Positions 32,900 through 49,727 of a stretch of 57,189 nt of DNA are shown here, piece after piece. Location: contig JACPEK010000005.1 of the NCBI GenBank assembly GCA_016183535.1, positions 1-57,189 of the forward strand, read 5' to 3'. Within the stretch, counting starts at the first letter, position 1. Each line of letters begins with the position of its first letter. Position numbers and translations under genes: made by a program. The stretch comes from Candidatus Brennerbacteria bacterium. GTDB taxonomy: Bacteria > Patescibacteriota > Minisyncoccia > UBA6257 > GWB1-50-10. The notes below the pieces were generated by a model, which saw nothing but the letters and a program-made list of their open reading frames with translations, was not told where the DNA came from and did no database searches.

Positions 32900-33016
32900 A
32901 AAACAAAAACTCTAAACAAATTTGAAATTCTAAACCAAAATGTTCAAAACGTTTAGGACTTGGGATTTTGGTCATTGGAATTTGTTTAGGATTTAGGATT
33001 TCGTGCTTAGGATTTA
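32900..33016. repeat. family-2 long imperfect inverted repeat (about 115 nt)
   Basis: AAAACAAAAACTCTAAACAAATTTGAAATTCTAAACC...GGTCATTGGAATTTGTTTAGGATTTAGGATTTCGTGCTTAGGATTTACG. The right end supplies the last codons of tkt-C. Confidence 0.75.
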
Positions 33017-34002: not shown

Positions 34003-34004
34003 AT

Positions 34005-34865: not shown

Positions 34866-34902
34866 AGTGAGATAATGCGATTTCCTCCATTATACCCCAA
34901 AC

Positions 34903-34930
34903 AAAAAAACCCTGCCTACCGGCAGGCAGG
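34903..34930 (-). terminator. rho-independent terminator after rpe
   Basis: Minus strand: CCTGCCTGCCGGTAGGCAGG followed by GTTTTTTTG. Confidence 0.6.
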
Positions 34931-34935
34931 CCCGC

Positions 34936-35598: not shown

Positions 35599-35605
35599 CC
35601 TTTCA

Positions 35606-36073
35606 TTATTCCCGTAGCCGGAGCGTCTCCGCCTCAATTTGCGTAAGTTTCTGAAGTCTCCGCACAAAGCGGGGTTCTTTCGAAAAAGGAGTGGCGAGCC
35701 ACGTCACGGCGATTTTTTCGGCCGCCGCGCCGTCGAGATAATTTGCCCCAAGACAAAGCACATTCGCGTTGTCGTCGTTCCGGCTGTCGAACGCCTGGTC
35801 GGGACTGCCGACCTGCGCCGCCCGTATGTTCGGAAATTTGTTCGCCACCACCGACACGCCCACGCCGGAACCGCACAGCAAAATACCGCGGCTTGTTTCT
35901 ACGTTCGCGCTCACTTTTTCCGCGGCCGCGGCCGCGATGTCGGTATAATCGTCGCTCTCATCGTATGCGGCGGCGCCTAGATCCACGACGGGATAGCCGC
36001 GCCGCGCAAGCGCGCCCTTCAGGAACTCCTTAAGCTCAAATCCGCGATGATCCGCGCCGAGATAAACAACCAT
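35606..36073 (-). CDS. rpiB: ribose-5-phosphate isomerase B
   Basis: MVVYLGADHRGFELKEFLK, LLCGSGVGVSVVANK. The ORF-track extension to 36130 runs into the IS terminal repeat. Confidence 0.9.
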   Translation of the reverse strand: MVVYLGADHRGFELKEFLKGALARRGYPVVDLGAAAYDESDDYTDIAAAAAEKVSANVETSRGILLCGSGVGVSVVANKFPNIRAAQVGSPDQAFDSRNDDNANVLCLGANYLDGAAAEKIAVTWLATPFSKEPRFVRRLQKLTQIEAETLRLRE

Positions 36074-36170
36074 ATATGGATTATCGGCGATTATTTTTCG
36101 ATTTTCAATTGCGGGTGGCCTGACCCCCATATGTTAGACACAAAGGTCGAAGTGGATATACCCTTGTGTC

Positions 36171-36428
36171 ATGAAGAAAACACATCGTATCGCTCCTGAG
36201 GTGCGGGAACAGATACTCAAACGCATTAAAGAGGAGGGAATACCGGTGGCGGCCGCGGCGAAAGACGCGGGCATCTCGGAAGCCACCATATACGGCTGGC
36301 TCGGGAAGGGGGTGAAGAGCGCTCCGACGATCGGCGAACTCGTGCGCGTGAAGCGCCAGAATGAGGAGCTCCTCGCCCTCGTGGGCGAGCTCACCCTCAA
36401 GATGTCCCAGTCCCAAAAAAAGGGTTGA
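36171..36428 (+). CDS. IS3-family transposase OrfA (HTH)
   Basis: 85 aa. HTH GISEATIYGWL and a leucine-zipper-like tail. Confidence 0.85.
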   Translation: MKKTHRIAPEVREQILKRIKEEGIPVAAAAKDAGISEATIYGWLGKGVKSAPTIGELVRVKRQNEELLALVGELTLKMSQSQKKG

Positions 36429-37234
36429 TCAAACGTCAGGGAAAAACGAGGTGGATGCTCGCGAGGGAACTCGGCATCTCCCGCGCCTCCCTCTACTACG
36501 TCTCGAAGCAGTCGCCGAAGGATTGGGCGCTCAAGGAACGGATCAGTGCGATATTGCAGGAGCATCCCTCCTGCGGCTTCCGGAGAGTGGCGCTGGAGCT
36601 CCGCATCAACAAAAAAAGAGCCCAACGTGTGATGAGGATTTTTGGCATGCGAGCCCATCGCCGGAGGGGCAGAAAGCCAAGGAAAACCGGCCTTGCGAGC
36701 ATCCTCTACCCCAACCTCCTCTCGACCAACTATCCGAGAGGACTGAACGACATCTGGGTTGCCGATTTCACGTATATCCCGTACCGGGGGAAGTTCCTGT
36801 ATTTGGCGACGGTCATGGATCTCTTCGCACGGGAGATCGTGGGTGCCGCGGTCATGGCAAACCACTCTGTGCCGCTCGTCTTGCAGGCGCTCTTCGCCGC
36901 CACTCTGCATCACCCGCGTCCCGACGTCTTCCATTCAGACAACGGGAGAGAGTATGGCGCAACGATATTCACGCGGGCGCTCACGGAGCTTGGCATTGCG
37001 ATCTCACGAAGTGCAAAGGCATCACCGTGGCAGAACGGATATCAGGAATCGTTCTACTCGCAGTTCAAGGTGGATCTCGGTGACCCTGAGCGCTTCAAGA
37101 CCCTGGGGGAACTCGTCTATGAGATCCATCGCCTTATCTGGGACTACAACCATCGGAGAATCCACTCCGTGCTCAAAATGCCGCCGAAACTGTTCGCCAA
37201 TCGCTACCAGAAACTCTTAGAAAAGGTGTCTTAA
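36425..37234 (+). CDS. IS3-family transposase OrfB (DDE/rve integrase core)
   Basis: WVADFTYI (D), HSDNGREYG (D), PWQNGYQESF (E). Probably expressed as an OrfAB fusion. Confidence 0.9.
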   Translation: MIKRQGKTRWMLARELGISRASLYYVSKQSPKDWALKERISAILQEHPSCGFRRVALELRINKKRAQRVMRIFGMRAHRRRGRKPRKTGLASILYPNLLSTNYPRGLNDIWVADFTYIPYRGKFLYLATVMDLFAREIVGAAVMANHSVPLVLQALFAATLHHPRPDVFHSDNGREYGATIFTRALTELGIAISRSAKASPWQNGYQESFYSQFKVDLGDPERFKTLGELVYEIHRLIWDYNHRRIHSVLKMPPKLFANRYQKLLEKVS

Positions 37235-37315
37235 GTTTGGGGGTCTTTACAGTGGTAGGAATCACTCTCATCATTGCTTTAGCCACGTCAGATTAAAATC
37301 TAGAGTTTCCGGAAC

Positions 37316-37435
37316 ATGACTTGGTATCAAATTCTCACAGTGGTAGTGATTGGAGCATTGGTTTTCTATATTTGGTCGAAGATTTCCAACCTTGAAGATC
37401 GAGTTGAGAAGCTCGAAAAAGACGATAGACCATAG
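37316..37435 (+). CDS. possible small membrane protein (39 aa)
   Basis: MTWYQILTVVVIGALVFYIWSKISNLEDRVEKLEKDDRP: one TM helix plus a charged tail. Below the ORF-track cutoff. A truncated paralog-like tail (VVGITLIIALATSD*) abuts the IS right end. Confidence 0.25.
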   Translation: MTWYQILTVVVIGALVFYIWSKISNLEDRVEKLEKDDRP

Positions 37436-37689
37436 TTTCTATTGGGGTTACTGTTTCTCTTTCCGTCAATTTTTCCCTCCTTATACCGTCTTGCGCCTCA
37501 TACTAAGCTGCCCTCATACGATGCACGTTATGCGTTTCCCTCCAAAGCTTCTTTTCATAAAAGGTTCTAACCATTCGCGCTGAATTGCTACTCCCTCGTG
37601 AGTGGCGATTTCTTGACGCACCCCGCTCGGCGTGGGAAAGTGAAGTCCGACACTAACCGATTCTTAACAAAAATATAAAGGGGAAGAAA

Positions 37690-38070
37690 TTGGAACTTAC
37701 CAAAGACCAAGCTAAAGAAGTAATCGAAACAGCCCTTTCCTACGTCGGTCACCCCTATGATTCAAAAGAGTTCAATTGTGTGGGCTTCGTCCGTACCGTC
37801 TACCGCACAATCGGAATTAAAATCTCGCCCCTCAAAAGCTGTGCGCCGCCCGCCGAGCTCAACTTATCGGCCGAGCAGGCAAAGGACCTTCCGGTCGGCC
37901 ACCTGATGTTTCTGAAAGACAGGGACGATCCGAGAAAAGAAAGGAGCTGGACTCACGTAGTCATAATACTCACGAAGGAGACGTGCATTCATTGCTCGCT
38001 CTTCTTCGGGCGAAAGGTCACGATTTCCTCTTTTGCAGAGATGTATTGTAAATATGACGTTGTGATATGA
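37690..38070 (+). CDS. NlpC/P60 (C40) family cysteine peptidase-like protein
   Basis: FNCVGFVRTVY (catalytic Cys context) and WTHVVIIL (His). TTG start preceded by AAGGGG. Confidence 0.65.
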   Translation: MELTKDQAKEVIETALSYVGHPYDSKEFNCVGFVRTVYRTIGIKISPLKSCAPPAELNLSAEQAKDLPVGHLMFLKDRDDPRKERSWTHVVIILTKETCIHCSLFFGRKVTISSFAEMYCKYDVVI

Positions 38071-38072
38071 CA

Positions 38073-38100
38073 AACCACCCGAAAATGTAGGGTGGTTTTT
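38073..38100 (+). terminator. rho-independent terminator
   Basis: AACCACCC-gaaaatgta-GGGTGGTT followed by TTT. Confidence 0.6.
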
Positions 38101-38131
38101 CATTACCACCCCCACCCCCTATACTGAAAGC

Positions 38132-38596
38132 ATGAATGGGGATGGCGAAAAAATCAGCTTCGAAAAGGCCACCGTGGAAGACGTGGACCAATTCGTCACG
38201 CTTGAGAAGAAGGTCGTCGGCCTCAAAACGTATTCGGGAATTACCGGTAAGGAAGAAGCGAAGACAGAGATAGAGCAGAACGAGGTCTATTTTATTAAGA
38301 AAGAGGATAAGGTTGTCGGGACTACCGAGTATCAGATACAAGGACCCGATGCCGCCTATCTCGGCGGGTTAGTTGTTGATCCTGAATTTTGGGGGCAGGG
38401 AATTGCGCGGCAGGCAATAGAATTTCGACTTGATAAGCTTCGAGACATAAAGCGTGTTTGGCTCGTGACCCACCCGCACAACAGTAAAATCATCCGGCTC
38501 TATCTTTCCTACAGTTTTATCGTGGAAGCATGGAAAGATAACTACTATGGAGATGGGGAACCGCGCCTTGTGCTTGCGCGAGAGCGCTCCATCTAA
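38132..38596 (+). CDS. GNAT family N-acetyltransferase
   Basis: LVVDPEFWGQGIARQAIEF acetyl-CoA binding motif (Q/RxxGxG/A). Confidence 0.8.
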   Translation: MNGDGEKISFEKATVEDVDQFVTLEKKVVGLKTYSGITGKEEAKTEIEQNEVYFIKKEDKVVGTTEYQIQGPDAAYLGGLVVDPEFWGQGIARQAIEFRLDKLRDIKRVWLVTHPHNSKIIRLYLSYSFIVEAWKDNYYGDGEPRLVLARERSI

Positions 38597-38630
38597 AGTG
38601 AAATAAAACTGTCTCTCATCTTGTACTACT

Positions 38631-38840
38631 ATGACAGGGATGGGAGAACCGACTTCGGACGAGGATATCGTGAAACGGGTGCAGGAGGGAGATGCCGAAG
38701 CATTCGGCGTTTTAGTTGAGCGGTATGAAGCCCGGCTTCTTCGGTACGCACGGCGGTTTCTTCTCGAAGTAGCCGACGCCGAGGATCTCGTCCAGGAGGT
38801 CTTTATCAGCGCCTATGAGAACATACGAAGCTTTGACGCG
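38631..38840 (+). pseudogene. ECF-type sigma-70 factor, 5' fragment truncated by IS insertion
   Basis: The first 70 codons encode region 2 (DAEAFGVLVERYEARLLRYARRFL...AEDLVQEVFISAYENIRSFDA). The reading frame then runs into the IS left end at 38841. No region 4 is found downstream. Confidence 0.7.
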
Positions 38841-39121
38841 TGGCCTGACCCCCATATATTAGACACAAAGGTCGAAGTGAATATACCCTTGTGTCATGAA
38901 GAAAACATACCGCACCGCTCCCGAAGTGAAGGAGCAGATACTGAAGCGAATCAAAGAAGAAGGGATCCTGGTCTCTCAGGCTGCGAAAGAGCACGGCCTG
39001 AATCCCGCCACCATATACAACTGGCTTGGGAGAGGGGTGAAAGGCACTCCCACAATCGGAGAACTCGTTCGCCTCAAACGCCTGAATGAGGAGCTCCTCG
39101 CCCTCGTGGGCGAGCTCACCC
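38841..39121 (+). mobile_element. 5' fragment of a second, diverged IS3-family element (left IR plus most of orfA)
   Basis: Same terminal TGGCCTGACCCCCATAT and an orfA homolog (ORF 38896..39219). Similarity to the first copy ends after GAGCTCACCCTC at about 39121. No orfB follows. Confidence 0.75.
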
Positions 39122-39251
39122 TCGTGCGCGGGAAGGTAGGAGCGCTGCCATCCACGAAAACCACTCTCCTAAAAAATGAAAAGCTCTATGCATACTTCAT
39201 AGAGCTTTCGAATCAATGAAGCTTGCTTCATGAGCGACCTGTCCGTCCGCA

Positions 39252-39647
39252 TTAGCGGAGCAGGACCATCTTCTTCGTCGCGGTGAAGGCGTTCGCTCCG
39301 ACGCTACGGTCGGAGTGCGCTTCAATCCGCACAAAGTAGATGCCGCTCGGGAGTCCGGAGGCATCCCACGTTGTCCGGTGGGTGCCGGCCGAGACCTCCT
39401 CGTCAATCAATGTTGCTACCTCTTGGCCAATTACGTTGTACACCGCAAGGCGTATATGGCTTCGGTCGGGAAGCGTAAACTCGATCGTCGTACTCGGATT
39501 GAACGGGTTCGGGTAGTTCTGATGCAGTGAGTAGCTAGCGGGGAGCAGTGAGTAACCGTCCTCTTCCACCGACACCGGCATATCGATCGCCCCGTCCACG
39601 CGGTAGAGGGTGTTGTAGGTTCCCACCAAAAGCGATTTGTCTTTCAC
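39252..39647 (-). pseudogene. 5'-truncated gene fragment encoding a T9SS type-A C-terminal sorting domain
   Basis: LHQNYPNPFNPSTTIEFTLPDRSHIRLAVYNVIGQEV...GLPSGIYFVRIE. Near-duplicate of the C-terminus of the 46059..47363 gene. Only 131 codons and no signal peptide. Confidence 0.6.
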
Positions 39648-39781
39648 TGCGAGCGAGAAGACGGCGAGAACGGAATCCGAGACAATCTGCGTTCACGCTT
39701 TCATGTCGTACTAAAATTTTTGCCGGAAAATCGAGTTTGGTATAAATTTTAAGCGCGTATATAATTTCCTTAACATACAAT

Positions 39782-40681
39782 ATGACGTCTACTCCCTATA
39801 TTAAAGTTGAACTTAGTGATCGGATTTTCTGCTTTTATACGCTCCTCAATGCAGGCGGATACTCTCAAGGACACGAGGTACATCCCATCAGAAGGAGAGT
39901 GGTCCGTGCCGCACGAGAGCGTCTCACGGGTGAAGTTACAAAAGTAATAGAGGAGCTTCTCGTGAAACCTGGAGCCACACAACAATACTGGTTTCCATAC
40001 CGCACCTGGGTGCTGTGTCATGGTCAGCCTTCGGAGTTTTCTGAACTATCGGAAAAATGGAAAAAAATCCTCGATGAAAACAGTGGAGAAAAATTGCGGG
40101 CCGTATTGCAAGCAATATGGTCCGATTTTGGCATATCTGAATTATGGGAACGTGAAAGAGCGGAATATCTCCGCGCGGAAAGGCAATGCGAAGAAAACGC
40201 ACGCAACGCGGTGCAAATTTCAATGGATTACCTTCGTCTACGCAGAGAGGAAATTACTTTCAAAAATTTCGTTGTCATACCGAATTTTCTTGACGAGTAC
40301 CACCGCGGCATAGGACCGTTGATTGAAAATACCGCGTACGCGCTCATGGGTCCTTCTCCAGATCCAAATGACCCATTTCCGGAAGAGCGGATTCAGCATG
40401 AATTTTTGCACTCAATCATAAATCCTGTGGTGGGAAAAATATTTCATGATTCCTCTCACCAAGAGAAATCAAAACTGCGGGAGACGCTCATCCATGGTAT
40501 TGTCCTCAAGACTCACCGGAATGACCAGAATTATGTGAGGCATAAGCGCGAAGATCTGATCGGCAAAAAAATAAATGTGGTGCCTGTTCTCAAAGTCTTC
40601 GAGGAATATGAAAACACTGGAGGAAGTTTTGAAGAATTTGTGAAATTGGAAATGCAAAAAATAAAAGAGGCGTGCCGTTGA
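39782..40681 (+). CDS. hypothetical protein with HExxH motif (putative zinc metallopeptidase)
   Basis: 299 aa. IQHEFLHSIINP contains HEFLH. Convergent with the rSAM/peptide unit. Confidence 0.5.
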   Translation: MTSTPYIKVELSDRIFCFYTLLNAGGYSQGHEVHPIRRRVVRAARERLTGEVTKVIEELLVKPGATQQYWFPYRTWVLCHGQPSEFSELSEKWKKILDENSGEKLRAVLQAIWSDFGISELWERERAEYLRAERQCEENARNAVQISMDYLRLRREEITFKNFVVIPNFLDEYHRGIGPLIENTAYALMGPSPDPNDPFPEERIQHEFLHSIINPVVGKIFHDSSHQEKSKLRETLIHGIVLKTHRNDQNYVRHKREDLIGKKINVVPVLKVFEEYENTGGSFEEFVKLEMQKIKEACR

Positions 40682-40687
40682 GGCGCG

Positions 40688-40703
40688 CCTCTTGCGCAAG
40701 AGG
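40688..40703. terminator. 16-nt palindrome between convergent genes
   Basis: CCTCTTGCGCAAGAGG, immediately after both stop codons. Confidence 0.45.
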
Positions 40704-40704
40704 G

Positions 40705-40827
40705 CTATTTTACGTCATCGTTGCATGTGCAATCGTCGCCACAGCTTATGTCCGCGGGACATCCGAGCGCCACGCTATCGAGCTCGGGCACAGAGACGTC
40801 AATGATGACGATGTTCTCGCTATCCAT
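40705..40827 (-). CDS. 40-aa Cys/Asp-rich peptide, candidate RiPP precursor
   Basis: My own translation gives MDSENIVIIDVSVPELDSVALGCPADISCGDDCTCNDDVK. AAAGGAGGAACTT precedes the ATG. Starts 14 nt after the rSAM stop. Not in the ORF track (<60 aa). Confidence 0.6.
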   Translation of the reverse strand: MDSENIVIIDVSVPELDSVALGCPADISCGDDCTCNDDVK

Positions 40828-40841
40828 AAGTTCCTCCTTTT

Positions 40842-42092
40842 TTATTTTAGATAAGCACCTTCCGCCACGCGCTTTATGATTCTTGGAATGATCGCGCGCA
40901 TGAAAGCGCAGTGAGTGGGATCCGGAGTAAACAAATCTCCGGTTTTGGTTAGCCCTTTATGGGCACATCCGCCACGACACAGGTTCCGAACGAAACAATC
41001 GTGACACTGTTTCATATTCGTCGTGCGCCGACTTGCAAGATACTCCGCCTTGCCGCCGTCGACTACAAAGCCGTCCCCAATGTTTCCGATGAAGAACGAC
41101 GGCCATTTTTTGTTCAATCCATCGTCGACTTCACTACACGCAGTAAGTTCGCCTCGGTGATTTACCACCAAAGTCGAACCTCCCATCGGACCACAGTAAG
41201 AGCGATGAGTTGCACCTTGGAAAAAATACGTTAATTCACCCACCCGCACTTTTTTCGAGGCTCTTCTTGCCCATTCCAAAGCATGGATAATAGCGTCCAC
41301 CCATTGTTCTACCTCTATCGGTGCCGCACAATTGATGTTTTTTCCTCTTCCCAATCCATACATAGGTTCAAGATGTATCCGGTCAACGCCGAGATCTTCG
41401 AAATATTCGAGAATCTCTCCAATGCGTGGAATGGAATCGCTTGTTAACGTTGTCCTCACCGAAAGAGGGTTGGATGATCTTTTCTTCCAAATACGCAAAG
41501 ATCTCTCGACGTGCGAGGAAGAGGGAAAACCACCTTTGAGCGGGCGTAATCTATCTTGTATGGACGGTGGGCCGTCAATTGAGAATGTGATGCCAACATT
41601 GTAATCAATCAACCACTCCAACAGCGTTACCGACATTACGCCGGAAGTTGTGAGCGTCCATCGAACGCGGGTATTGTACTTCGCCACCACGTGCTTTATT
41701 ACTTGGGCGGCCGAAGTCGGTTCACCTGCTCCGAACAACGTTACGCGCGGATTTTTATGGTTCAGCGCGAGATAACAAGCGATAGCCTTGTCGGCCAATT
41801 CAACGCTCATAAGCTCGTTACTCGCTCCCGTGTTCGCGTAACAATATACACAACGCAACGGACAACGCTTACTGAGAAGCAACATCAAGTTCGACAGCTT
41901 CTGCGGCGCGGGGATAACTTCCGAACACACTTCACGAAAGAATCCCGCCTGTATAAGGTTTTCCATGACTTCAGCACATAGATTCGACGAACGAGCTACT
42001 TTTTTAACGCCTTGCCCGTAGATCAGGAAACAATGACCATCGGGCACTATTATTGTGTCGCCGATAACAGTCGGAAATTCTATCGTTCTCAT
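40842..42092 (-). CDS. radical SAM enzyme with C-terminal SPASM domain (peptide-modifying maturase-like)
   Basis: CPLRCVYC (CxxxCxxC), GGSTLVVNHRGELTACSE, CHDCFVRNLCRGGC (CX2CX5CX3C). AAGGAG lies 8 nt before the ATG. Confidence 0.9.
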   Translation of the reverse strand: MRTIEFPTVIGDTIIVPDGHCFLIYGQGVKKVARSSNLCAEVMENLIQAGFFREVCSEVIPAPQKLSNLMLLLSKRCPLRCVYCYANTGASNELMSVELADKAIACYLALNHKNPRVTLFGAGEPTSAAQVIKHVVAKYNTRVRWTLTTSGVMSVTLLEWLIDYNVGITFSIDGPPSIQDRLRPLKGGFPSSSHVERSLRIWKKRSSNPLSVRTTLTSDSIPRIGEILEYFEDLGVDRIHLEPMYGLGRGKNINCAAPIEVEQWVDAIIHALEWARRASKKVRVGELTYFFQGATHRSYCGPMGGSTLVVNHRGELTACSEVDDGLNKKWPSFFIGNIGDGFVVDGGKAEYLASRRTTNMKQCHDCFVRNLCRGGCAHKGLTKTGDLFTPDPTHCAFMRAIIPRIIKRVAEGAYLK

Positions 42093-42122
42093 CTCTTATT
42101 CTCCTTTTTAATTTCTTTTGAA

Positions 42123-42128
42123 ATTATA
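42123..42128 (-). promoter_or_regulatory. candidate -10 element for the rSAM/peptide unit
   Basis: Minus strand reads ...TTGTTGTTTTTTTGTTGTATAATTTC, with TATAAT about 30 nt upstream of the ATG. The -35 is not clear. Confidence 0.3.
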
Positions 42129-42197
42129 CAACAAAAAAACAACAAGAAAACAAAACACTCTGTTTTTTTGCTACAAGGATTTTGAATAAACCAATGC

Positions 42198-42230
42198 AAA
42201 AGGGCTGATATGAAATTTCATATCAGCCCT
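42198..42230 (-). terminator. rho-independent terminator after proS
   Basis: AGGGCTGATATGAAATTTCATATCAGCCCT perfect hairpin followed by TTT on the minus strand. Confidence 0.65.
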
Positions 42231-42306
42231 TTGATAAATCTACTTCACGAGCACGTGCCAGTCCGCGGCTAGCGGAGGAAGACCATCTTTTTCGCGATGA
42301 TCGAAT

Positions 42307-43773
42307 TCAGTATGCCTTCGCGAAAATAACCCTCCGAGGAGAATCTCCTCCACATCTCACGCATTTCCCCTGCTCATCCTCGCTGTTGAGAGGAATGCAA
42401 CGGATTGTCGCGAGCGTTTCTTTTTTGATTTGAGATTCACACGCAACATCACCACACCAATGCGAGTAGAGGAATCCTCCAGAGCCGACTGCCTTTTCTT
42501 TGAATTCGTCCCAAGAATTTACTTTCTTGGAATGCTCATTCTGGCGTTGCAATGCTTTTTCAAAAAGATTCTTTTGAATCGCAGCTAGTGTATTCTCCAC
42601 GTGAGCAACGACGCCCACATCATCCACTAGAACCTTCTCGCCAGTATCTCTCCTTACTACTATCAAAGAATTAGCTGCAAGCTCCTTTGGGCCTATTTCG
42701 ATGCGGATTGGCACTCCTTTTTTCTCCCATTCGAAAAACTTGGCGCCCACTCTTCCCTCTCCCTCATCAATCTTCACGGTAATGCCGAGTTGTTCTTGAA
42801 GCTTAGCGGCAACCGTATAAGCTCTCTGCACTATCTCCTTTCCACCCACTTCGACTGCCACTGGAATGATAACAGCGTGAAGTGCGGCGATTTTAGGAGG
42901 AATAATGACTCCTTTGTCATCGCCATGCACCATGATGAGTGCACCGATAATCCGAGTGCTTAATCCCCAGCTCGTTTGCCACACAAATTGTTCCTCTCCT
43001 CCCTGGTCAGAGAATTTCACGTCAAATGCTTTTGCGAAATTCTGCCCGAGCATATGAGAAGTCGCGGCCTGAAGTGCTTTTCCATCTTGCATAAGGGCCT
43101 CGAGGCAAGTAGTGTAAAGTGCGCCGGCAAATTTCTCCTGCTCACTTTTTTTCCCTATTACAACGGGAATGGCAAGGTGGTCCTCAACGAAACGGCGATA
43201 CACCTCGATCATCCGCATTGTCATCTCGCCTGCCTCCTCTTCAGTACTGTGAGCTGTGTGGCCTTCTTGCCAAAGAAACTCGGTGGTCCTCAAGAACGGG
43301 CGCGGACGCATTTCCCAACGAACCACGTTCGCCCACTGGTTTATGAGAAGCGGCAAATCCCGGTAGGAGTGAATCCACCTTTGAAAAGAAGAGTAGATAA
43401 TGGTCTCCGAGGTTGGCCGCACCACCAGAGGTTCTTCAAGAAGCCCCGTCGGGACTAGAACTCCCTCCTCATTCGCCTCAAGACGATGATGGGTGACAAC
43501 GGCGCATTCCTTGGCAAATCCTTCAACATGCTTGGCTTCCTTCTCTATGAGGTTCTTTGGAATAAATAACGGGAAATAAGCATTTTGAATCCCGAGAACT
43601 TTAAAAGCGGAACCAAGTACTTTTTGGATATTTTCCCATAACGCATAACCGTTGGGCCTGAACACCATACAACCTCGGACAGAGGAGCTGTCCGCCAGTT
43701 CAGCGGCTTCAATAAGATCTAGATACCATCTGGAGTAATCCTCCGTCCTTTTGGTTATTTTTCTGTTGTTCAT
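42307..43773 (-). CDS. proS: prolyl-tRNA synthetase, archaeal/eukaryote-like type
   Basis: 488 aa. YSRWY, RPTSET, FLWQEGHTAH, SHMLGQNF, WQTSWGLSTR, HGDDKG, C-terminal Zn-domain ending ...AKAY. Confidence 0.95.
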   Translation of the reverse strand: MNNRKITKRTEDYSRWYLDLIEAAELADSSSVRGCMVFRPNGYALWENIQKVLGSAFKVLGIQNAYFPLFIPKNLIEKEAKHVEGFAKECAVVTHHRLEANEEGVLVPTGLLEEPLVVRPTSETIIYSSFQRWIHSYRDLPLLINQWANVVRWEMRPRPFLRTTEFLWQEGHTAHSTEEEAGEMTMRMIEVYRRFVEDHLAIPVVIGKKSEQEKFAGALYTTCLEALMQDGKALQAATSHMLGQNFAKAFDVKFSDQGGEEQFVWQTSWGLSTRIIGALIMVHGDDKGVIIPPKIAALHAVIIPVAVEVGGKEIVQRAYTVAAKLQEQLGITVKIDEGEGRVGAKFFEWEKKGVPIRIEIGPKELAANSLIVVRRDTGEKVLVDDVGVVAHVENTLAAIQKNLFEKALQRQNEHSKKVNSWDEFKEKAVGSGGFLYSHWCGDVACESQIKKETLATIRCIPLNSEDEQGKCVRCGGDSPRRVIFAKAY

Positions 43774-43846
43774 GACTTTTCCTCTGATTTAGATGGGAGT
43801 TAAATTTCTTTTTTGATTATAAAACTATATTTCTTTTCAGTCAAGT

Positions 43847-44395
43847 CTAACTGCTGTTGGCATCCTTGTTCCTTGGAGAAATGAAGTCTTTATAAATCTG
43901 CGATTCCATCGGTCCACGACTATTTTGATACTTCCCTCCATACAGTCGTATTTTCCCTTTTGGAACCCAAAAGGTCACTTGACCAATAAGCATGTTGCGA
44001 TAAATCCTTATTTTTTGCACCGTGTGCAACTGGAGAGTCCATTGATTGACCGAACCGATATCAATGAGATCGGCGGTAATATGGATAAACAGTCCCACTC
44101 TCCCAATGGAAGATCTTCCTCTTATAATCGGGACATAATGGTTGCTCCCCATAATTTCTTCTGTGTGCCCCAAGTATAGCCTCCTTGGGTCTAAAACGAG
44201 GCCGTTGCGAGGAATTTCTATTAGATCAACCTTTTGCTTCAATTTGGGATTCAGCAATCGATTTCTGTATACCTTGATAAACCTTCCCAACCGAAAATTA
44301 TAGGAATTTGGATTTAATTGCCTTCTCCGAAACGGGGAGATTATTATTCTTCCTTTTTGCACTTCCTTTTCTATTTCTTTTCCGGTAAGTATCAT
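43847..44395 (-). CDS. dCTP deaminase (Dcd/dUTPase-fold) family paralog, catalytic Glu replaced by Gln
   Basis: MILTGKEIEKEV..., NPNSYNFRLG, GRSSIGRVGLFIHITADLIDIGSVNQWTLQL. Canonical Dcd has ...TLE/VLE at this position. Confidence 0.8.
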   Translation of the reverse strand: MILTGKEIEKEVQKGRIIISPFRRRQLNPNSYNFRLGRFIKVYRNRLLNPKLKQKVDLIEIPRNGLVLDPRRLYLGHTEEIMGSNHYVPIIRGRSSIGRVGLFIHITADLIDIGSVNQWTLQLHTVQKIRIYRNMLIGQVTFWVPKGKIRLYGGKYQNSRGPMESQIYKDFISPRNKDANSS

Positions 44396-44922
44396 GGGCG
44401 TTTTCGATTCAATTCTTTATATATCTTGCTCGTTCTCGGTTTCGAATATCTGCCGTATTCCCCTCGATAAAGAAGTTTTTTACTCCCATGCATAGTCCAA
44501 AAGCTTACCTGGCCGATTTTCATAAGTGGATACACCATCAAAGGTTGTACGGCATGCAATTCGAGTGTCCATGCATGTTCCGACCCCACATGCCCTAGAT
44601 CTGCTGTAATTTGAAGGTAAAGGCCTAGCCTCCCAACAGAAGATCTTCCACTTAAAATGGTTACGTAGAAATCACTTCCTATTCTTTCAAAAGTGTGTCC
44701 TAAATACAACTTACCTGGTTCCAAAATAGATCCACGCTCGGTGAGTTTTATTTTTCTGTATCGGAGCGGCTTCTTAAGATTAGAGCCTTTTTTAATTTCG
44801 AACAGCGTCCTCCCCAACCGATAGTTATAGCTATTCGGATTCACGTTTTCCTCTATAAATGGGGATATACATATCCGCCCACGTTTCACTTCTTTTTTTA
44901 TTTCTTCGCCGGTAAGAATCAT
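44392..44922 (-). CDS. dCTP deaminase (Dcd/dUTPase-fold) family protein
   Basis: MILTGEEIKKEV..., NPNSYNYRLG, GRSSVGRLGLYLQITADLGHVGSEHAWTLEL (Glu retained). ATGA overlap with the downstream paralog. Confidence 0.8.
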   Translation of the reverse strand: MILTGEEIKKEVKRGRICISPFIEENVNPNSYNYRLGRTLFEIKKGSNLKKPLRYRKIKLTERGSILEPGKLYLGHTFERIGSDFYVTILSGRSSVGRLGLYLQITADLGHVGSEHAWTLELHAVQPLMVYPLMKIGQVSFWTMHGSKKLLYRGEYGRYSKPRTSKIYKELNRKRP

Positions 44923-44931
44923 TTGGTTATT

Positions 44932-45969
44932 TTAGAAAAAATCCCTCCATCCTTGTTCGGCTTTTGCCTGTTTGGAAAACTGAGGCTCATCCGATGAATA
45001 CTCCTCAAGATGCGCGGTCAACCATTCTGTTGCGAGTGTCGCTTTTCCAAATTCTTCTTTCTCATACAAATTTGCTAGATGGATAACCTCCTCTGTTGTT
45101 AATGAAAGTTTCTTCTTAAGATAATTAAGTCCTTGGAGATAGAGTTTAAGGATTCGTCCCTTATCTCTATCTGAGGGCTTGATATTTTCTCTCAGTATCA
45201 CGACAACACAAGAAAGTGCATCAGAAAACTTTCTAGCATATCTCCCCTCTATAGGGGCGAGGAGATTTGCCGCTGTTGCTTCGATGGAACTTCCTAAATC
45301 GTGTACGCGCGAAATCATCGTGCTCACTCCAAAACCCAGTTCCACCGCAAGCGCCTTTCCACTAGATGCGTTTTCCGCAAGAACGATATTCCCTATGACT
45401 CTGAACTCCCCTGTTTTACTATTTATCATGGAGAAATTAAAATTTCTCCCTTTTATTTCCTGTGTACCGTAACGATGACGATACGTGTCGATATTCCCGT
45501 GAACAACGTTTAGCTTTGGAGTGTCTTGATCGCTTTGAATTTGTGATATGAAATCACCATCTTCAGAAGCTATATCAATTCTTATGCGATCCTTTTCAAT
45601 CCCTAGTTGATACAAGTATTTGCAAGTGTCATGAAAAAGTTCAGCTACGCGATTTGGCGGAGCTATAATGCCGGTAGCAGTAAAATACGAACTCCAATCG
45701 GGAATAATCTCATCATTGAGAAGAACTTTCGCGTTTTGCGTCCTCAAACATTTTTGCACAAGAAAAAAGCCAGGGGTTGGTATGCCGCCATAAAGGAGGA
45801 GAGACTTGAAAACGTTTGTTGTCGAGCCGATAAATCTTACGCTGTGATCAGCGGAAGATACGAGAGAGCTCGGCGGGTATTCAATATACCCGAGGTCGCC
45901 AAAGTGTTTTCTAAACACGCTCGAAACGAGAAGGGTTTGTTCTTTCAGCCAGTTTTTATCCTTCCTCAT
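44932..45969 (-). CDS. alanyl-tRNA-synthetase-like class IIc catalytic core, stand-alone (no editing or C-Ala domains)
   Basis: By-eye alignment to the E. coli AlaRS N-terminus. FRKHFGDLGYIEYPPSSLVSSAD matches [30 protein letters not shown] matches SQRCVRA. SYFTATGII matches TFFEMLGNF. IGNIVLAE matches IWNIVFMQ. VELGFGVSTMISRV matches VDTGMGLERIAAVL. ATG at 45969 chosen because the ORF-track start (46152) overlaps the upstream gene and its terminator. Confidence 0.7.
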   Translation of the reverse strand: MRKDKNWLKEQTLLVSSVFRKHFGDLGYIEYPPSSLVSSADHSVRFIGSTTNVFKSLLLYGGIPTPGFFLVQKCLRTQNAKVLLNDEIIPDWSSYFTATGIIAPPNRVAELFHDTCKYLYQLGIEKDRIRIDIASEDGDFISQIQSDQDTPKLNVVHGNIDTYRHRYGTQEIKGRNFNFSMINSKTGEFRVIGNIVLAENASSGKALAVELGFGVSTMISRVHDLGSSIEATAANLLAPIEGRYARKFSDALSCVVVILRENIKPSDRDKGRILKLYLQGLNYLKKKLSLTTEEVIHLANLYEKEEFGKATLATEWLTAHLEEYSSDEPQFSKQAKAEQGWRDFF

Positions 45970-46010
45970 TAAAGTTATAACGTTCCTTAAATTATGCCTT
46001 GAGCACGCGG

Positions 46011-46042
46011 AAACAAAAAGCCCCATGCGTACTGCACGGGGC
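46011..46042 (-). terminator. rho-independent terminator after the BNR/T9SS gene
   Basis: Minus strand: AGCCCCGTGCAGTACGCATGGGGCT followed by TTTTTGTTT. Confidence 0.5.
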
Positions 46043-46058
46043 TTCTGAAACAATAAAT

Positions 46059-47363
46059 CTACTTCATGAGGACCATCTTCTTCGTCATGGTGAACGCGCC
46101 TGCGTTCATTCTGGCGAAGTAGATGCCGCTCGGGAGTCCGGAGGCGTCCCACGTTGTCCGGTGGGTGCCGGCGGAGACCTCCTCGTCAACCAACATCACA
46201 ACTTCCTGGCCGAGCGCATTGTACACTGTGAGGCGTACATGACTTCGGTCGGGAAGCGTAAACTCGATCGTCGTACTCGGATTGAACGGGTTCGGATAGT
46301 TCTGCTTGAGAACAAATTCGGTTGGAACCGAATTGTCTTCAACCTTGACGATGTCGTCCCACTTCGCCATCCAAACACCGTCGTTGGTGCCGATCGCAAG
46401 CGTGAGCGCATCAACCCTCACAATCGAGATGGGGATAAACCCCGTGAGGTTGAGCGGTTTCCATTCCTCCTCGCTCACTCTTTGATACAGAATGGGGTCT
46501 CCGGGATTTGGAGTAACCCCCGCTATGGTGCCAAAGGGCGCAGGTCCGACGTAGACCACTTCCCCGAGTTCTTCAGGGACACCGTCAACGTGTTGCCAGG
46601 TGTCCCCTTCATTCGAGGAATGGAAGATGCCGCCTCCGTCCGTCGCGACATAGACACCTCGGTACCAACCGACAGTGTCCGCGGCAATACTCAAAATATT
46701 AGTAGAGGTCAGGCCGCTACTCACATTTTTCCACGTTTCGCCCCTATCTGTAGAACGGAGCACGCCCTTTGCGGAATCCTTCACCCCGGAGTTCAATCCT
46801 ATATACAGGTATCCAGACGGGGCTTCCGTCATCCTCTCGGTATAATACTTTATAAGAGGATGATTGGGAGCGAGAATAACTTCCCATGTCTCTCCATCGT
46901 CGATGGATTTGTACAATCCATCACCGCCAGCAAAAACCGTTCCGTTCTTCGTCGCAAAAAGCATTACAAGAGATTCATTTTCCGGATCCCATACATGTCG
47001 CCAGCTTTCTCCACGGTCGGTGGATTTGAATATACCATTCCATGCGGCGACAAGAATACCCCCGTCTTTTGTCTTTACAATGCCTTCGACAGAAGACGGG
47101 TGGAGGTCAAGCCCATACGAGGGGCCGATCTCATAGAAATCGCTCTTGTTCTGGGACGCGTACAGGTAGAGATTCGTCCCGGCGAAGATGAGTGAATCGT
47201 CGTAAACGAGGAGATGCCGCGCATTCACCTGTTGACCTTTGAGGTTCCAGGGCCATGCCCAGGTAAAGGTGATTTTTCTGGCCGAGGTTTGCGCCCATCC
47301 CTGAAACGGAACAGACGCGAGGAGCATCGCGAAGATGCCCGCAAGAATCCATAACCGTTTCAT
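46059..47363 (-). CDS. BNR/Asp-box repeat protein with T9SS type-A C-terminal sorting domain
   Basis: Signal peptide. Asp-boxes STDRGESW, SIDDGETW, STDRGETW, SNEGDTW. C-terminus NYPNPFNPSTTIEFTLPDRSHVRLTVYNALGQEV...GIYFARM. AAAGAGG lies upstream of the ATG. Confidence 0.85.
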   Translation of the reverse strand: MKRLWILAGIFAMLLASVPFQGWAQTSARKITFTWAWPWNLKGQQVNARHLLVYDDSLIFAGTNLYLYASQNKSDFYEIGPSYGLDLHPSSVEGIVKTKDGGILVAAWNGIFKSTDRGESWRHVWDPENESLVMLFATKNGTVFAGGDGLYKSIDDGETWEVILAPNHPLIKYYTERMTEAPSGYLYIGLNSGVKDSAKGVLRSTDRGETWKNVSSGLTSTNILSIAADTVGWYRGVYVATDGGGIFHSSNEGDTWQHVDGVPEELGEVVYVGPAPFGTIAGVTPNPGDPILYQRVSEEEWKPLNLTGFIPISIVRVDALTLAIGTNDGVWMAKWDDIVKVEDNSVPTEFVLKQNYPNPFNPSTTIEFTLPDRSHVRLTVYNALGQEVVMLVDEEVSAGTHRTTWDASGLPSGIYFARMNAGAFTMTKKMVLMK

Positions 47364-47469
47364 TTCGCGCCTCTTTGTTTTGTTATTAGTTTTTCTGGTT
47401 AGAATTGTACCACAAACAATGGGGAAAAGTCAATATTAGGACAGTGCATAAGCGGTGCGTCAAGCGGAC

Positions 47470-47496
47470 AAAAAAAACCGCCCACAAGGGGCGGCT
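47470..47496 (-). terminator. rho-independent terminator
   Basis: Minus strand: GCCGCCCCTTGTGGGCGG followed by TTTTTTTT. Confidence 0.6.
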
Positions 47497-47523
47497 TTCG
47501 CGTTTATTCGCCTTCTATATTCC

Positions 47524-49620
47524 CTATGGCTTCAGCTCTCCTCGCACAAAGAAAGCGTATTCCGTGTCAGGGTCGAGACCTGTAATAACGGCGGTTTTGT
47601 TGGACCCTTGGAGAAGGAGGTTACCTTGGAAAATATCGAGCCGAGATCGATATTTCAATTTGTCTGCGTAATCGGCAGTGAGGGTTTTTTCTTGTCTCTC
47701 AATAAAAATTTTTTTATAACTAATCGGATTCTCCCATTCCACCTCGACAGAGGTGCCGCCCGGGAGCGGCCGCACGTCTTTCAAAATCGGCCCGCCGAAG
47801 GAGAGCCAGCCCGCCGTGTCGCCGCCCCACGCGAAGCCGCGGAACTCGCCCGCGCCGTCCGTCGTCGTCGCGTAGACCAACTTGTAGGAAGGCTCGCCGC
47901 TCTTCGGCGACAAGCTCACAAATTGGCCGAGGCCATTCCCCTTCCCGTCACCCATAAACTTCGCCCATCCCGTTACGGTGCGAAACCGCTGGCCCGCGTC
48001 GGCCGCCGCGACTTTCGCCTCGCATGCTCCGGAGGGACACTGCGCGAGGTCGCCTTTATTGAAAGAGAGCCAGCCCGCGTACGGGCTCCACGCATACCCC
48101 GCGAGCGTGCCCGCGCCATCCAGATATATGCCGTAGGGAACGCTTTCGGCAGGCGCTTTCGCGGGCCCCCAACTCGAGTTCGCCGAATCGTTCGAGAGCC
48201 GGATCCATCCGAGGCCGTTCCCGCTCCACACCCAGCCCTTGACCGCGGTGAGATTAGCGTTAAACGGGATCGTTTCAGAATACACCTCCGTTCCTCCACG
48301 AGACGCCCGTATGCGATACTCGTAGTTTTCTCCTCTTACCAACAAATCCCTGCACGCGTTGACCGCAGTACCGCAGTTTCCCTCATTCACCTTTTTTTCC
48401 GTAAATGCGGGATTCCCGCCCGCCACCCGACGCCCCATCCAAAATTCAGTTCCGGACAATACAAGATCAACTTTCCAAAAAACGTTGACCCCCACCGTCG
48501 TCGGATCGGTAAAGCTCGGAGAAACCTTGAGGCCATACGGCGCCGGAAGCCCGGTGGATGCCGCCACGGGAGCGGAGTACGCCGAGCACGCCGTTTCGGT
48601 GCACCCGCGCGCCTTATACCAATAAATTTGCGTCCCGCCCTGTTCAACCGCGCCGTCTTCATATCGGGTTACGCCGGCACCGACAACATAAGGAGCGGAG
48701 AGGGTGTTGTCCGCACTAAATGATTCAGACTTGGAACGGAGAATTTCGAATCTCACCTCATTTGCTTCGCCTTTCGAGTTATCCCGCCAATTGAGCGTGA
48801 TCTTGCGCGGCTTATCGCTGAAGTCGACGGTAAGCTTATCGGGCGCGGACGGCACCACTGCGGCGGAAGATCCGTCGGAAACCGCGACGTGCGCCGCACG
48901 GAGCGGATTGCATCCTTCGCCCCCCGTCTCCTGCGTTTTCACTACGTAGCGATACGCGTTCGCCCCCGTAACATCTTCCACGTCATAATAGAAAAATTTT
49001 TCGTTGTTTCTTTGGGACGAGGGGGGGCGACCGATGCGCGCAAGCGGCCCGAACGAATTGCCGCCATTCGTCGAAGCCGCGCGCCATATTTCGAAACCGC
49101 CGTAAGCTTGGAAAAGATTCGAGATTGGCGCGTTCATGTCCCATTGGAGCTCGATGCGCCCCGCGGCCTGGTTAAAAACTACCGCGACGTTCTTCGGGCT
49201 CTCGGGTTTCGGCGGGAGCGCGAGCGCGGTGGCCGACGCCTCGCTTGACCATTCGCTCTGCGCACCCGTCACGGTGTTTTTTGCACGCACGCGATAGGAA
49301 TAGGACTCGCCCGGATCAATATGATCGCGCGCATCTTCGGCCGACCAAAGCGCATCGCCGTCCTCGTCGGTAAAAACCTTGCCTCCGCCTTCGTCGGCCG
49401 TCGCGATATTCACTTCGGCAATGCGGTTCCGCTCCACGTCATAAGCGTCTGCGCCTTCCGCCGGCACCCAACTTACCTTGAACGCGCAGGAAGAGACGGG
49501 GATTGCGGCAAGATTCCCCGGCGTACCCAGTGTTTGCGCTTCCGCGATAAAACTAAGCGCGCCGAGAAAAACCCCGACTCCCGATAGAACCAAAACTAGC
49601 GTGATAACATGCTTTCGCAT
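47524..49620 (-). CDS. large secreted protein with fibronectin type III-like repeats
   Basis: Signal/TM MRKHVITLVLVLSGVGVFLGALSF. Repeated Fn3-like segments (PGNLAAIPVSSCAFKVSWVP..., PKNVAVVFNQAAGRIELQWD...). ATG at 49620. Confidence 0.65.
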   Translation of the reverse strand: MRKHVITLVLVLSGVGVFLGALSFIAEAQTLGTPGNLAAIPVSSCAFKVSWVPAEGADAYDVERNRIAEVNIATADEGGGKVFTDEDGDALWSAEDARDHIDPGESYSYRVRAKNTVTGAQSEWSSEASATALALPPKPESPKNVAVVFNQAAGRIELQWDMNAPISNLFQAYGGFEIWRAASTNGGNSFGPLARIGRPPSSQRNNEKFFYYDVEDVTGANAYRYVVKTQETGGEGCNPLRAAHVAVSDGSSAAVVPSAPDKLTVDFSDKPRKITLNWRDNSKGEANEVRFEILRSKSESFSADNTLSAPYVVGAGVTRYEDGAVEQGGTQIYWYKARGCTETACSAYSAPVAASTGLPAPYGLKVSPSFTDPTTVGVNVFWKVDLVLSGTEFWMGRRVAGGNPAFTEKKVNEGNCGTAVNACRDLLVRGENYEYRIRASRGGTEVYSETIPFNANLTAVKGWVWSGNGLGWIRLSNDSANSSWGPAKAPAESVPYGIYLDGAGTLAGYAWSPYAGWLSFNKGDLAQCPSGACEAKVAAADAGQRFRTVTGWAKFMGDGKGNGLGQFVSLSPKSGEPSYKLVYATTTDGAGEFRGFAWGGDTAGWLSFGGPILKDVRPLPGGTSVEVEWENPISYKKIFIERQEKTLTADYADKLKYRSRLDIFQGNLLLQGSNKTAVITGLDPDTEYAFFVRGELKP

Positions 49621-49727
49621 TTTGGTTCCATTATACCACACGCAACGAACACCGCTCCTGAAGATTCTCGTTCAATCAGAAGAAACGTTCCGCTCAAAAA
49701 CAAACTAACCAAATCCTGATTTTAGAA

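Follow-up and report, generated by a model that had tools for sequence, protein, structure and literature searches.

A low-GC region divided by repeated surface-protein gene ends, a probable accessory island in a Candidatus Brennerbacteria genome

Bacteria of the Candidate Phyla Radiation (CPR) have tiny, streamlined genomes, and little is known of how they gain genes. This question is raised by the stretch of DNA analyzed here (the window), the 57,189-nucleotide contig JACPEK010000005.1 of a Candidatus Brennerbacteria bacterium (assembly GCA_016183535.1), in which a low-GC region of mixed gene content lies beside genes whose products end in a C-terminal domain of the type IX secretion system (T9SS). 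An initial annotation had described this region as a mosaic of about 11 kb with signals foreign to the host, which was either acquired from a donor of the Fibrobacterota-Chlorobiota-Bacteroidota (FCB) group or joined in as an assembly chimera. Our results indicate that it is probably a genuine, strain-specific accessory island of a ~0.6-Mb CPR genome, which grew at the 3' end of an operon of two native genes, an fn3-domain surface protein gene and a gene for a BNR/Sortilin-type beta-propeller (the BNR gene).

The genome under study (G000; the window is its contig C6) consists of six contigs with 604,585 bases and was rated 98.3% complete and 2.97% contaminated. Its gene content is CPR/Patescibacteria-like, with type IV pilus genes and a split transketolase, and its relatives have genomes of 0.5-1.4 Mb. 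Comparisons were made with two congeners (G001 and G002) and with 40 relatives, i.e., 24 genomes of the same family and 16 from 16 other families of the order, while 300 further genomes, evenly sampled across the phylum, were used for distribution counts. All four sequencing runs that hold DNA of the window (X1-X4) are groundwater metagenomes from a single study.

Repeated gene ends and the extent of the low-GC DNA

The low-GC DNA is split by copies of a module of ~300 nt, which comprises a T9SS-type C-terminal domain (the tail), the stop codon and a conserved terminator hairpin. In an alignment of seven tail copies, homology began at the tail or at most ~150 nt before it and ended abruptly just past the hairpin. 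An nhmmer profile of the module recovered nine copies in the genome, of which six are on contig C4 and three in the window, where all lie on the minus strand. The three copies in the window differ in how much of a gene they retain (Table 1). The truncated tail-bearing gene of module 2 (39,252-39,692) shows 67% identity to the BNR protein over residues 321-433 of the latter, with homology extending upstream to ~39,692, and the module is host-like in composition (GC 0.576; GC at third codon positions, GC3, 0.735). Module 3 abuts the stop codon of proS, includes a perfect 34-nt palindrome (42,199-42,232) and has a subtype-specific insertion in common with module 2. The modules split the low-GC DNA into segments B, A2 and A1, three blocks of cargo that differ in composition. 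Together with the ends of insertion sequences (IS), the modules are the only long direct repeats at the island. In a genome of another genus of the family (G021), a similar array extends over 11 kb, with one full module, two partial ones and one reduced to the tail; the other two loci examined (G023 and G005) held single intact genes.

Composition was said to drop between 36,116 and 47,470. The drop itself was borne out. GC per kb was 0.586, 0.560, 0.602 and 0.573 from 33 to 37 kb, then 0.475, 0.493, 0.521, 0.465, 0.489, 0.446, 0.463, 0.407 and 0.418 from 37 to 46 kb, and 0.531, 0.532 and 0.584 from 46 to 49 kb. Measured against 583 4-kb windows across the whole 605-kb genome, the tetranucleotide distance to the genome mean lay in the 87th-98th percentile for windows of C6 starting at 36,001-44,001, with a peak at percentile 97.8 for 42,001-46,000, and did not exceed the 71st percentile in the remaining windows of C6. 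Furthermore, GC3 was 0.39-0.59 in the cargo genes vs 0.52-0.73 in the flank genes. The borders had to be redrawn, as the IS3-family element on the left (GC 0.56-0.58) and the BNR gene on the right (GC 0.533, GC3 0.62) are both host-like; therefore, the low-GC stretch runs from 37,252 to ~46,012, and the earlier right border, which took in the native BNR gene, was placed ~1.4 kb too far to the right.

Low GC is also found elsewhere in this genome, in 84 of 595 2-kb windows with GC <0.50, which form roughly two dozen patches, many at contig ends. Loci of other genera of the family (G021, G023 and G005; L161-L163) have a GC of 0.38-0.42, and therefore low GC is not un-CPR-like. Loci of the genus itself (L033 and L035) stand at 0.53-0.54, and the genus appears to have shifted toward higher GC, against which low-GC DNA, whether imported or a relic, is conspicuous. 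Two single low-GC genes were seen within host-like DNA of the window, one for a protein of the 23S-rRNA-intervening-sequence family between genes of the pilus locus (19,318-19,701, minus strand, GC 0.40) and one for a methyltransferase at the contig start (23-739, plus strand, GC 0.33).

The tails had been read as signals foreign to the host. That two genes end in a T9SS type-A C-terminal domain was confirmed, with scores of 45.4 and 44.7 bits for PF18962 (cut-off 27; the latter score is that of the truncated gene) and of 47.4 and 39.3 bits for TIGR04183 (cut-off 23), all above the curated cut-offs. In the BNR protein, the tail spans residues 356-431 of 434, and the N terminus, MKRLWILAGIFAMLLASVPFQGWAQ, is signal-peptide-like as judged by eye. 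The foreign origin was not confirmed. Seven matches to Por_Secre_tail were found in the genome (two on C6 and five on C4), and the domain is present in both congeners, in 12 of the 24 same-family genomes and in 11 of the 300 sampled genomes of the phylum, one of these being a genome in a single contig, with five copies; the 16 genomes from other families of the order had no match. Tails are 62-77% identical among the copies of this genome and 45-58% identical to those of family relatives. Full-length homologues of the BNR protein occur in G001 (40% identity) and G022 (36%), and in G001, G002 and G022 the BNR homologue lies directly downstream of an fn3-gene homologue, in the same order as in the window; therefore, the BNR gene is resident. 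The T9SS-type tails are a native, family-wide and lineage-specific protein family. A "T9SS sorting domain" is thus unsafe as a taxonomic marker or contamination flag, since it occurs in half of the genomes searched in a CPR family and in ~4% of the 300-genome sample.

The translocon and attachment parts of the T9SS that were searched for (SprA/Sov, PorV and PorU) were not found in this 98.3%-complete genome; GldKLMN was not searched. The SprA profile (TIGR04189) had no match in it, although it matched in none of the control genomes either, the PorV profile (NF033710) had none, and the only part of the PorU profile (NF033707) to be matched was the tail of PorU itself, at model positions 999-1094. 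Full-text literature searches on the type IX sorting domain and Patescibacteria or CPR, which included bioRxiv 10.1101/2025.01.14.632903, yielded no link between the two.

Shine-Dalgarno (SD) sites were likewise put forward as a mark of the island. The quoted sites do exist: AAAGGAGGAACTTATG had one match vs 0 expected, and the site of the radical S-adenosylmethionine (radical-SAM) gene is present as well. They do not set the island apart, where such sites are no commoner than elsewhere. Among the 10 island open reading frames (ORFs) of at least 100 aa, a 5-mer SD core was found in one and a 4-mer core in two, and eight had none at all. Genome-wide (545 ORFs), the frequencies were 7.9% and 13.0%, compared with 6.4% and 14.1% at random positions. 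Cores of at least 6 nt occurred in 25 of the 545 ORFs, made up of 21 of the 480 with a GC3 of at least 0.5 and four of the 65 with lower GC3.

Table 1. Coordinates of the features at the island and its borders, from left to right (positions of the window).
Feature	Position	Strand	Evidence or remark
rpiB, last gene of the conserved left flank	35606-36130	-	flank proteins 70-93% identical to both congeners
Intact IS3-family element	36116-37251	+	HTH_Tnp_1 and rve (Pfam); TG...CA ends
Cargo segment B	37252-39199	+	GC ~0.48-0.53
Small membrane ORF (segment B)	37317-37436	+	
NlpC/P60 domain gene (segment B)	37690-38070	+	domain scan
GNAT gene (segment B)	38132-38596	+	domain scan
Fragment of an extracytoplasmic function (ECF) sigma gene (segment B)	start 38631, cut ~38837	+	sigma-70 region 2 only kept
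Partial IS copy, 287 nt	38837-39123	same orientation as IS3	81% identical to 36,112-36,398
Module 2: 5'-truncated BNR-type gene with complete tail, stop and hairpin	39200-39692	-	nhmmer 39171-39523, E 8.8e-82
Cargo segment A2	39693-42198	mainly -	
299-aa HExxH protein gene	39782-40681	+	convergent to the radical-SAM/peptide pair
40-aa Cys/Asp-rich peptide gene	40705-40827	-	own strong SD site
Radical-SAM/SPASM maturase gene	40842-42092	-	strong SD site
Module 3: tail-only stub, last tail codons, stop and hairpin	42196-42325	-	direct repeat D5, alignment A1, nhmmer
Cargo segment A1	42307-46012	-	GC 0.41-0.48
proS, full-length type-I prolyl-tRNA synthetase (ProRS)	42307-43773	-	TIGR00408 560.7 bits (cut-off 437), residues 7-488; PF09180 (ProRS-C_1)
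dcd1	43847-44395	-	dCTP-deaminase family; TIGR02274 for the dcd genes
dcd2	44392-44922	-	dCTP-deaminase family
Stand-alone paralogue of the alanyl-tRNA synthetase (AlaRS) catalytic core, 345 aa as called by a source	44932-45969	-	structure comparison
Module 1: 3' end of the BNR gene	tail 46071-46298, stop, terminator to ~46013	-	nhmmer match 46002-46306; full gene
BNR/Sortilin-type beta-propeller gene, native	46059-47363	-	domain scan, full-length homologues; feature span 46013-47363 including terminator
fn3-domain surface protein gene, native, right-hand anchor of the locus	47524-49641	-	conserved upstream neighbour of the BNR gene

Cargo genes and their origin

At the DNA level, only the IS, the tails, the sigma fragment and a short stretch of proS matched the 40 relatives. 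The flanks are conserved in both congeners while the cargo was found in neither of them. At the protein level, the NlpC, AlaRS-like and 299-aa genes had no match in the 40 relatives at E≤1e-5, the GNAT gene had one (G026, 55% identity), and the type-I ProRS was present in two (46-48%). Neither dcd nor the radical-SAM gene was detected in the congeners at E≤1e-3, and both had matches of no more than 35% identity among the 40 relatives, in nine of them for dcd and in seven for radical-SAM. The best matches overall were 76% identical for dcd, 50% for the AlaRS-like gene and 72% for radical-SAM. Taken with the presence of a second ProRS, this distribution supports the view of the initial annotation that the low-GC genes were gained by horizontal acquisition, and we consider it likely that the island was acquired in this way.

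In addition to the type-I enzyme of segment A1, the genome encodes a 419-aa ProRS of the bacterial type on contig C1 (~48.3-49.6 kb), which is common to the relatives; type-I enzymes were found in 69 of the 300 sampled genomes of the phylum. A homologue set was formed from the best 80 matches from named genomes, a set whose make-up reflects the database. These matches were mostly from Bacteroidota, at 53-59% identity, and in the origin tally, which includes G033, Bacteroidota accounted for 63 of 81 rows. A tree was built from 52 rows, for which the Bacteroidota rows were thinned to a third, the rest were all retained and 12 of the 69 type-I sequences from CPR were added, with 14 CPR rows in total. 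In this tree, the ProRS of the window was excluded from the Bacteroidota/Balneolota/Rhodothermota clade (support 100/98) and from the next clade (97/91); it lay in a polytomy with a Solibacteraceae metagenome-assembled genome and an unclassified bacterium, apart from the 14 CPR rows. A quick tree of 82 rows agreed. None of the best 80 ProRS loci had another cargo gene alongside, and the sole other match to an island gene was a weak sorting-tail match in L057. The proposed donor of the FCB type is not supported by these data, nor by the only named relatives of the AlaRS-like gene, which belong to Paceibacterota (47% identity) and Omnitrophota (39%).

Two observations were made on the ProRS homologues themselves. 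A type-I match in a genome of the same order (L011; G030:C4:8296-9726) has eight in-frame TGA codons, which suggests that the contig of a TGA-recoding organism entered the bin or that the gene has decayed. The ProRS of JBILLF010000090.1 (L070), labelled "Patescibacteria group bacterium", was nested inside Saprospiraceae in both trees, and this contig is probably mis-binned.

The remaining genes of segment A1 are two dcd genes, 51% identical to each other, and the AlaRS-like gene. For a 406-aa ORF of the latter, the protein atlas returned only sub-threshold matches (0.80-0.81), with a tRNA-synt_2c lead that was later confirmed by structure: the predicted model (pLDDT 82) aligned to AlaRS fragments with TM scores of 0.70-0.73 (E 2.8e-12). 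A PDB sequence search with the 345-aa protein gave no match. The dcd2-dcd1 pair was found in the same order in 19 of 23 metagenome loci, 18 of them at GC 0.26-0.38, and in 15 of the 23 the AlaRS-like gene lay within a few kb. For the dcd and the AlaRS-like proteins, the nearest homologues sit on contigs of matching length (5,023, 5,195 and 7,353). We infer from this linkage that the AlaRS-like gene and the two dcd genes travelled as one unit. The flanks of the contigs with the dcd pair had only scattered matches of 21-52% to proteins of the genome under study, so that no organism was assigned to them. The spare ProRS, being next to the peptide-maturation pair of segment A2, could be a resistance or immunity gene, although a terminator separates it from that pair.

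That pair consists of the radical-SAM/SPASM gene and a 40-aa ORF, MDSENIVIIDVSVPELDSVALGCPADISCGDDCTCNDDVK, which begins 14 nt past the radical-SAM stop codon and whose C-terminal half is rich in Cys and Asp. The best NCBIfam matches of the radical-SAM protein were of the PapB type (132.5 bits, cut-off 340) and the QhpD type, and it scored below all equivalog cut-offs; it is related to the PapB/QhpD thioether enzymes and a member of no named family. The two genes probably form a small thioether system for a ribosomally synthesized and post-translationally modified peptide (RiPP). The closest radical-SAM proteins were 72, 67 and 70% identical. For the 299-aa protein, the protein atlas gave unnamed clusters with a 14% share of DUF4932 and no firm family. 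Each of the four runs has a contig that agrees with the window to the right of 40,045 but continues leftwards into unrelated sequence, and depth is raised in the 39,609-40,242 bin; part of the 299-aa gene may occur in a second context within the community. A further, distant radical-SAM/SPASM gene lies in the module array of contig C4 (C4:27568-28554, in a 496-aa open frame) and is 24% identical to that of the window.

The reading of the cargo as horizontally acquired has points against it. No donor lineage can be named, the ProRS of the window sits on a long branch (0.86), which leaves its placement unsure, and, gene by gene, differential loss in the relatives could stand in place of gain. 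In its general form, the last point would make the region an ancestral variable one, in which old residents were lost in relatives and low GC arose from local mutation bias or relaxed selection. It would fit the low GC of other genera in the family, by which low GC in a 0.54-GC genus could be a relic, and the presence of type-I ProRS in over a fifth of the sampled phylum. We consider it improbable, since the cargo is missing from both congeners and from almost all of the 24 same-family genomes, the type-I ProRS is redundant with the conserved bacterial-type enzyme and does not group with the CPR rows of the tree, and the boundaries of the cargo lie inside broken genes.

Some of these broken genes are in segment B. 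The gene fragments that the initial annotation had listed (a truncated sigma factor, a truncated IS and a truncated tail-bearing gene) were each confirmed by domain scans and alignments. The partial IS copy interrupts the sigma gene at 38,837, and the sigma fragment has DNA matches of 69-70% in two genomes of the same order. The intact IS3 element to its left encodes orfA (36,171-36,428; helix-turn-helix) and orfB (36,425-37,234; DDE, rve), with an A7G slippery site near 36,415 and imperfect inverted repeats (36,122-36,141 and 37,226-37,245), and a copy 75% identical to it is present in G021. A perfect target-site duplication of 3-4 bp was not found (the flanks are GGG and GTG), which is weak evidence only.

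The IS elements bring up the possibility that a single mobile element moved the region, either as a composite IS3 transposon or as an integrative element that has since lost its integrase. An intact IS3 does stand at the left edge, with a second, partial copy in the same orientation, and the missing perfect duplication would suit such an event. The two copies are only 81% identical, the second is a 287-nt fragment, and only segment B lies between them; the limits of A1 and A2 are formed by modules and not by IS ends. No IS, integrase or tRNA gene lies on the right side: the 18 ORFs scanned contained no integrase domain, and the nearest tRNA gene is at 54.4 kb of the window. Scans of viral contigs with dcd1 and radical-SAM gave no usable locus. 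A single element is, then, an unlikely vehicle for the whole region.

Assembly of the region and an inversion

Contigs of the Logan resource from the four runs were placed on 32,001-51,000 of the window, with one depth figure per contig. In X1, the depth was 22.0 and 21.1 on the left flank, 19.2 on IS3 and segment B, 21.5 on A2, 20.7 on A1 and 20.0 on the right flank. The corresponding figures in X2 were 7.1-9.6, 10.2, 8.4, 8.0 and 8.2, and in X3 the flank and cargo pieces had a depth of 2.7-4.6, with 0 differences. Contigs span the border of rpiB and IS3 (36,116) in X1, X2 and X3 and that of IS3 and segment B (37.2-37.3 kb) in X1 and X2. Furthermore, a contig of 3,944 nt (42,203-46,146), found in both X1 and X2, joins A1 to the terminator and the last 85 nt of module 1, across the junction near 46,013.

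These results bear on the alternative that the region is an assembly chimera, in which DNA of another organism, e.g., of the FCB group, was joined into a CPR contig at repeats. Such an error would account for the breaks in the Logan contigs at 36,369-36,388, 38,847-38,870, 39,094-39,113, 39,358-39,482, 42,203-42,228 and 46,147-46,314, all of which fall at repeats (IS ends, tails and the 34-nt palindrome), and for the loose end at 40,045 in all four runs, and it would fit the estimated contamination of 2.97%. It would not account for the equal depth of flanks and cargo in three runs (~20-22 in X1, ~8-10 in X2 and ~3-5 in X3), for the bridging contigs, one of which ties A1 to a module end specific to this CPR family, for the interleaving of the cargo with three host-like modules, or for the fact that both IS3 and the sigma fragment are related to sequences from this CPR family or its order. 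We regard a chimera, which the initial annotation had left as an option, as very unlikely. The run X4 (depth ~2-4) was considered as a possible island-free strain, since it has no cover over 40,877-45,948 while parts of both flanks and of B are covered, and was rejected because no contig joins across the gap.

The gene order around the island differs from that of the congeners. The left flank from 24 to 36 kb is collinear with G002 and G001. In both congeners, rpiB adjoins genes that lie at C4:32.6-38.9 kb in the genome under study, and downstream of the BNR gene, at a distance of 1.4-1.9 kb, come genes and a pilus locus whose orthologues in the genome under study are at C4:10.7-15.9 kb. The strands of the genes fit a single inversion, with its ends at the island of C6 and at a low-GC array on C4 (20-32 kb), which holds six of the nine modules. 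A reciprocal mis-assembly of C4 and C6 driven by repeats was examined and rejected: the best repeat common to both has 83% identity over 254 nt, and a swap of tails would not restore the order of the congeners. Therefore, the inversion is read as a real rearrangement. In the collinear left flank, the gene for a release factor (28,829-29,560, minus strand) is a 243-aa ORF whose match to the PCRF domain is confined to positions 99-194, with the N-terminal part not in frame, and the orthologues of both congeners are 88% identical; the short ORF could reflect a programmed frameshift like that of prfB, or the protein may simply be short.

Several facts count against this account of a genuine island. 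The Logan contigs stop in the tail repeats, at 39,358-39,482 and 46,147-46,314, and therefore the link between the body of the BNR gene and the cargo rests on the original assembly and on equal depth. X1 and X2 are possibly the source samples of the assembly, and all four runs come from one study. The evidence for the inversion comes from two separate contigs. The score of module 3 is weak (E 0.0014, nhmmer model positions 192-292), and the proposed role of the modules in integration is read from their anatomy.

Mode of growth and known systems

Another alternative is a recent transfer of the whole block of ~11 kb from a donor of the Bacteroidota or FCB group that brought the T9SS domains along, which would suit the origin of most of the best 80 ProRS matches and the scores of the tails as type-A sorting domains but is contradicted by the occurrence of these tails and of a syntenic BNR gene within the CPR family, by the position of ProRS outside the FCB clade, by the absence of dcd and radical-SAM beside any of the best 80 ProRS loci, by segments that differ in GC from 0.41 to 0.53, by the named AlaRS-like relatives, and by the strong SD sites of the radical-SAM and peptide genes, as Bacteroidota genes typically lack such sites; we consider it very unlikely.

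A genuine accessory island that grew stepwise at the end of the fn3-BNR operon accommodates these data better. The cargo would have been imported piecemeal from low-GC donors that are not demonstrably of the FCB group. DNA acquired by competence would have been integrated, or retained, beside the modules through recombination anchored on the ~300-nt repeats, i.e., by homology-anchored and partly illegitimate recombination following DNA uptake, and recombination among modules together with IS3 activity would have led to the truncation of genes and the inversion of segments. Genes for ComEC and RecA are present in the genome, and pilus genes in the window. Whether the modules did act as anchors in this way seems to us evenly balanced. 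A bolder proposal, which we hold to be doubtful, has two parts: that a CPR family without an outer membrane or T9SS adopted the T9SS type-A domain as a sorting or anchoring tag, and that the tail-plus-terminator ends serve as recombination anchors that both capture competence-derived genes, such as spare tRNA synthetases and a RiPP pair, and promote large inversions between arrays.

If the island is what we take it to be, a genome of 605 kb has repeatedly gained genes, and has done so at one defined site, where 3' ends of native surface-protein genes are repeated. Its cargo also deserves attention, as it includes a second type of ProRS, a stand-alone paralogue of the AlaRS core that goes together with a conserved dcd pair, and a small peptide system with a radical-SAM enzyme.

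Within the genome, the closest parallel is the module array of C4, where the same tail-plus-terminator modules bound low-GC inserts. The island of the window differs from it in being smaller (three modules), in its attachment to the fn3-BNR operon, in its IS3 element and in forming the reciprocal end of the inversion. The tails resemble the type-A cargo of the T9SS in Bacteroidota in their scores above the cut-offs, in their position at the extreme C terminus of a protein with an N-terminal signal-peptide-like segment, and in a YPNPF...GIYF...KKMVL pattern. They differ in their host, a CPR bacterium with a 0.6-Mb genome, where the searches recovered neither SprA nor PorV and matched PorU through its own tail only, and in forming a lineage-specific family.

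Orphan arrays of 3' fragments of rhs and cdiA offer a likeness in layout, with a full gene for a secreted protein followed by 5'-truncated copies that keep a conserved, recombination-prone segment, in a scrambled and strain-specific order. In rhs/cdi arrays, variable toxin tips, accompanied by immunity genes, follow downstream of the conserved segment. In the island, by contrast, the conserved part is the extreme C-terminal sorting domain with its terminator, the cargo between the copies consists of unrelated metabolic and RiPP genes, and no toxin/immunity pair was seen.

With respect to mechanism, homology-facilitated illegitimate recombination during natural transformation was reportedly described in work on Acinetobacter and Streptococcus in about 2002. 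In this process, homology over a few hundred bases on one side anchors the foreign DNA, which is then integrated by way of an illegitimate joint on the other side, and the junctions of the island inside broken genes at 42.3 kb and 38.8 kb fit this scheme. The island would differ in that its anchor is a multi-copy gene end instead of unique flanking DNA, and we know of no demonstration of the process in CPR bacteria.

Finally, Oliveira and colleagues are said to have described, in 2017, chromosomal hotspots of horizontal gene transfer that lack dedicated mobility genes. The island resembles these in its strain-specific, deviant genes between conserved core genes and in having neither an integrase nor a tRNA site; turnover in hotspots is ascribed to homologous recombination in the flanks. 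Unlike them, it has cargo that is subdivided by the host's own gene-end repeats, and it coincides with the end point of an inversion and with an IS3 element. Altogether, a deviant, strain-specific hotspot island is a known kind of locus, and the one described here is a variant of it, in which the slots are bounded by tail-plus-terminator ends of host genes, the repeated ends belong to a T9SS-type family in a genome with no detectable T9SS, and the island marks the end point of an inversion.

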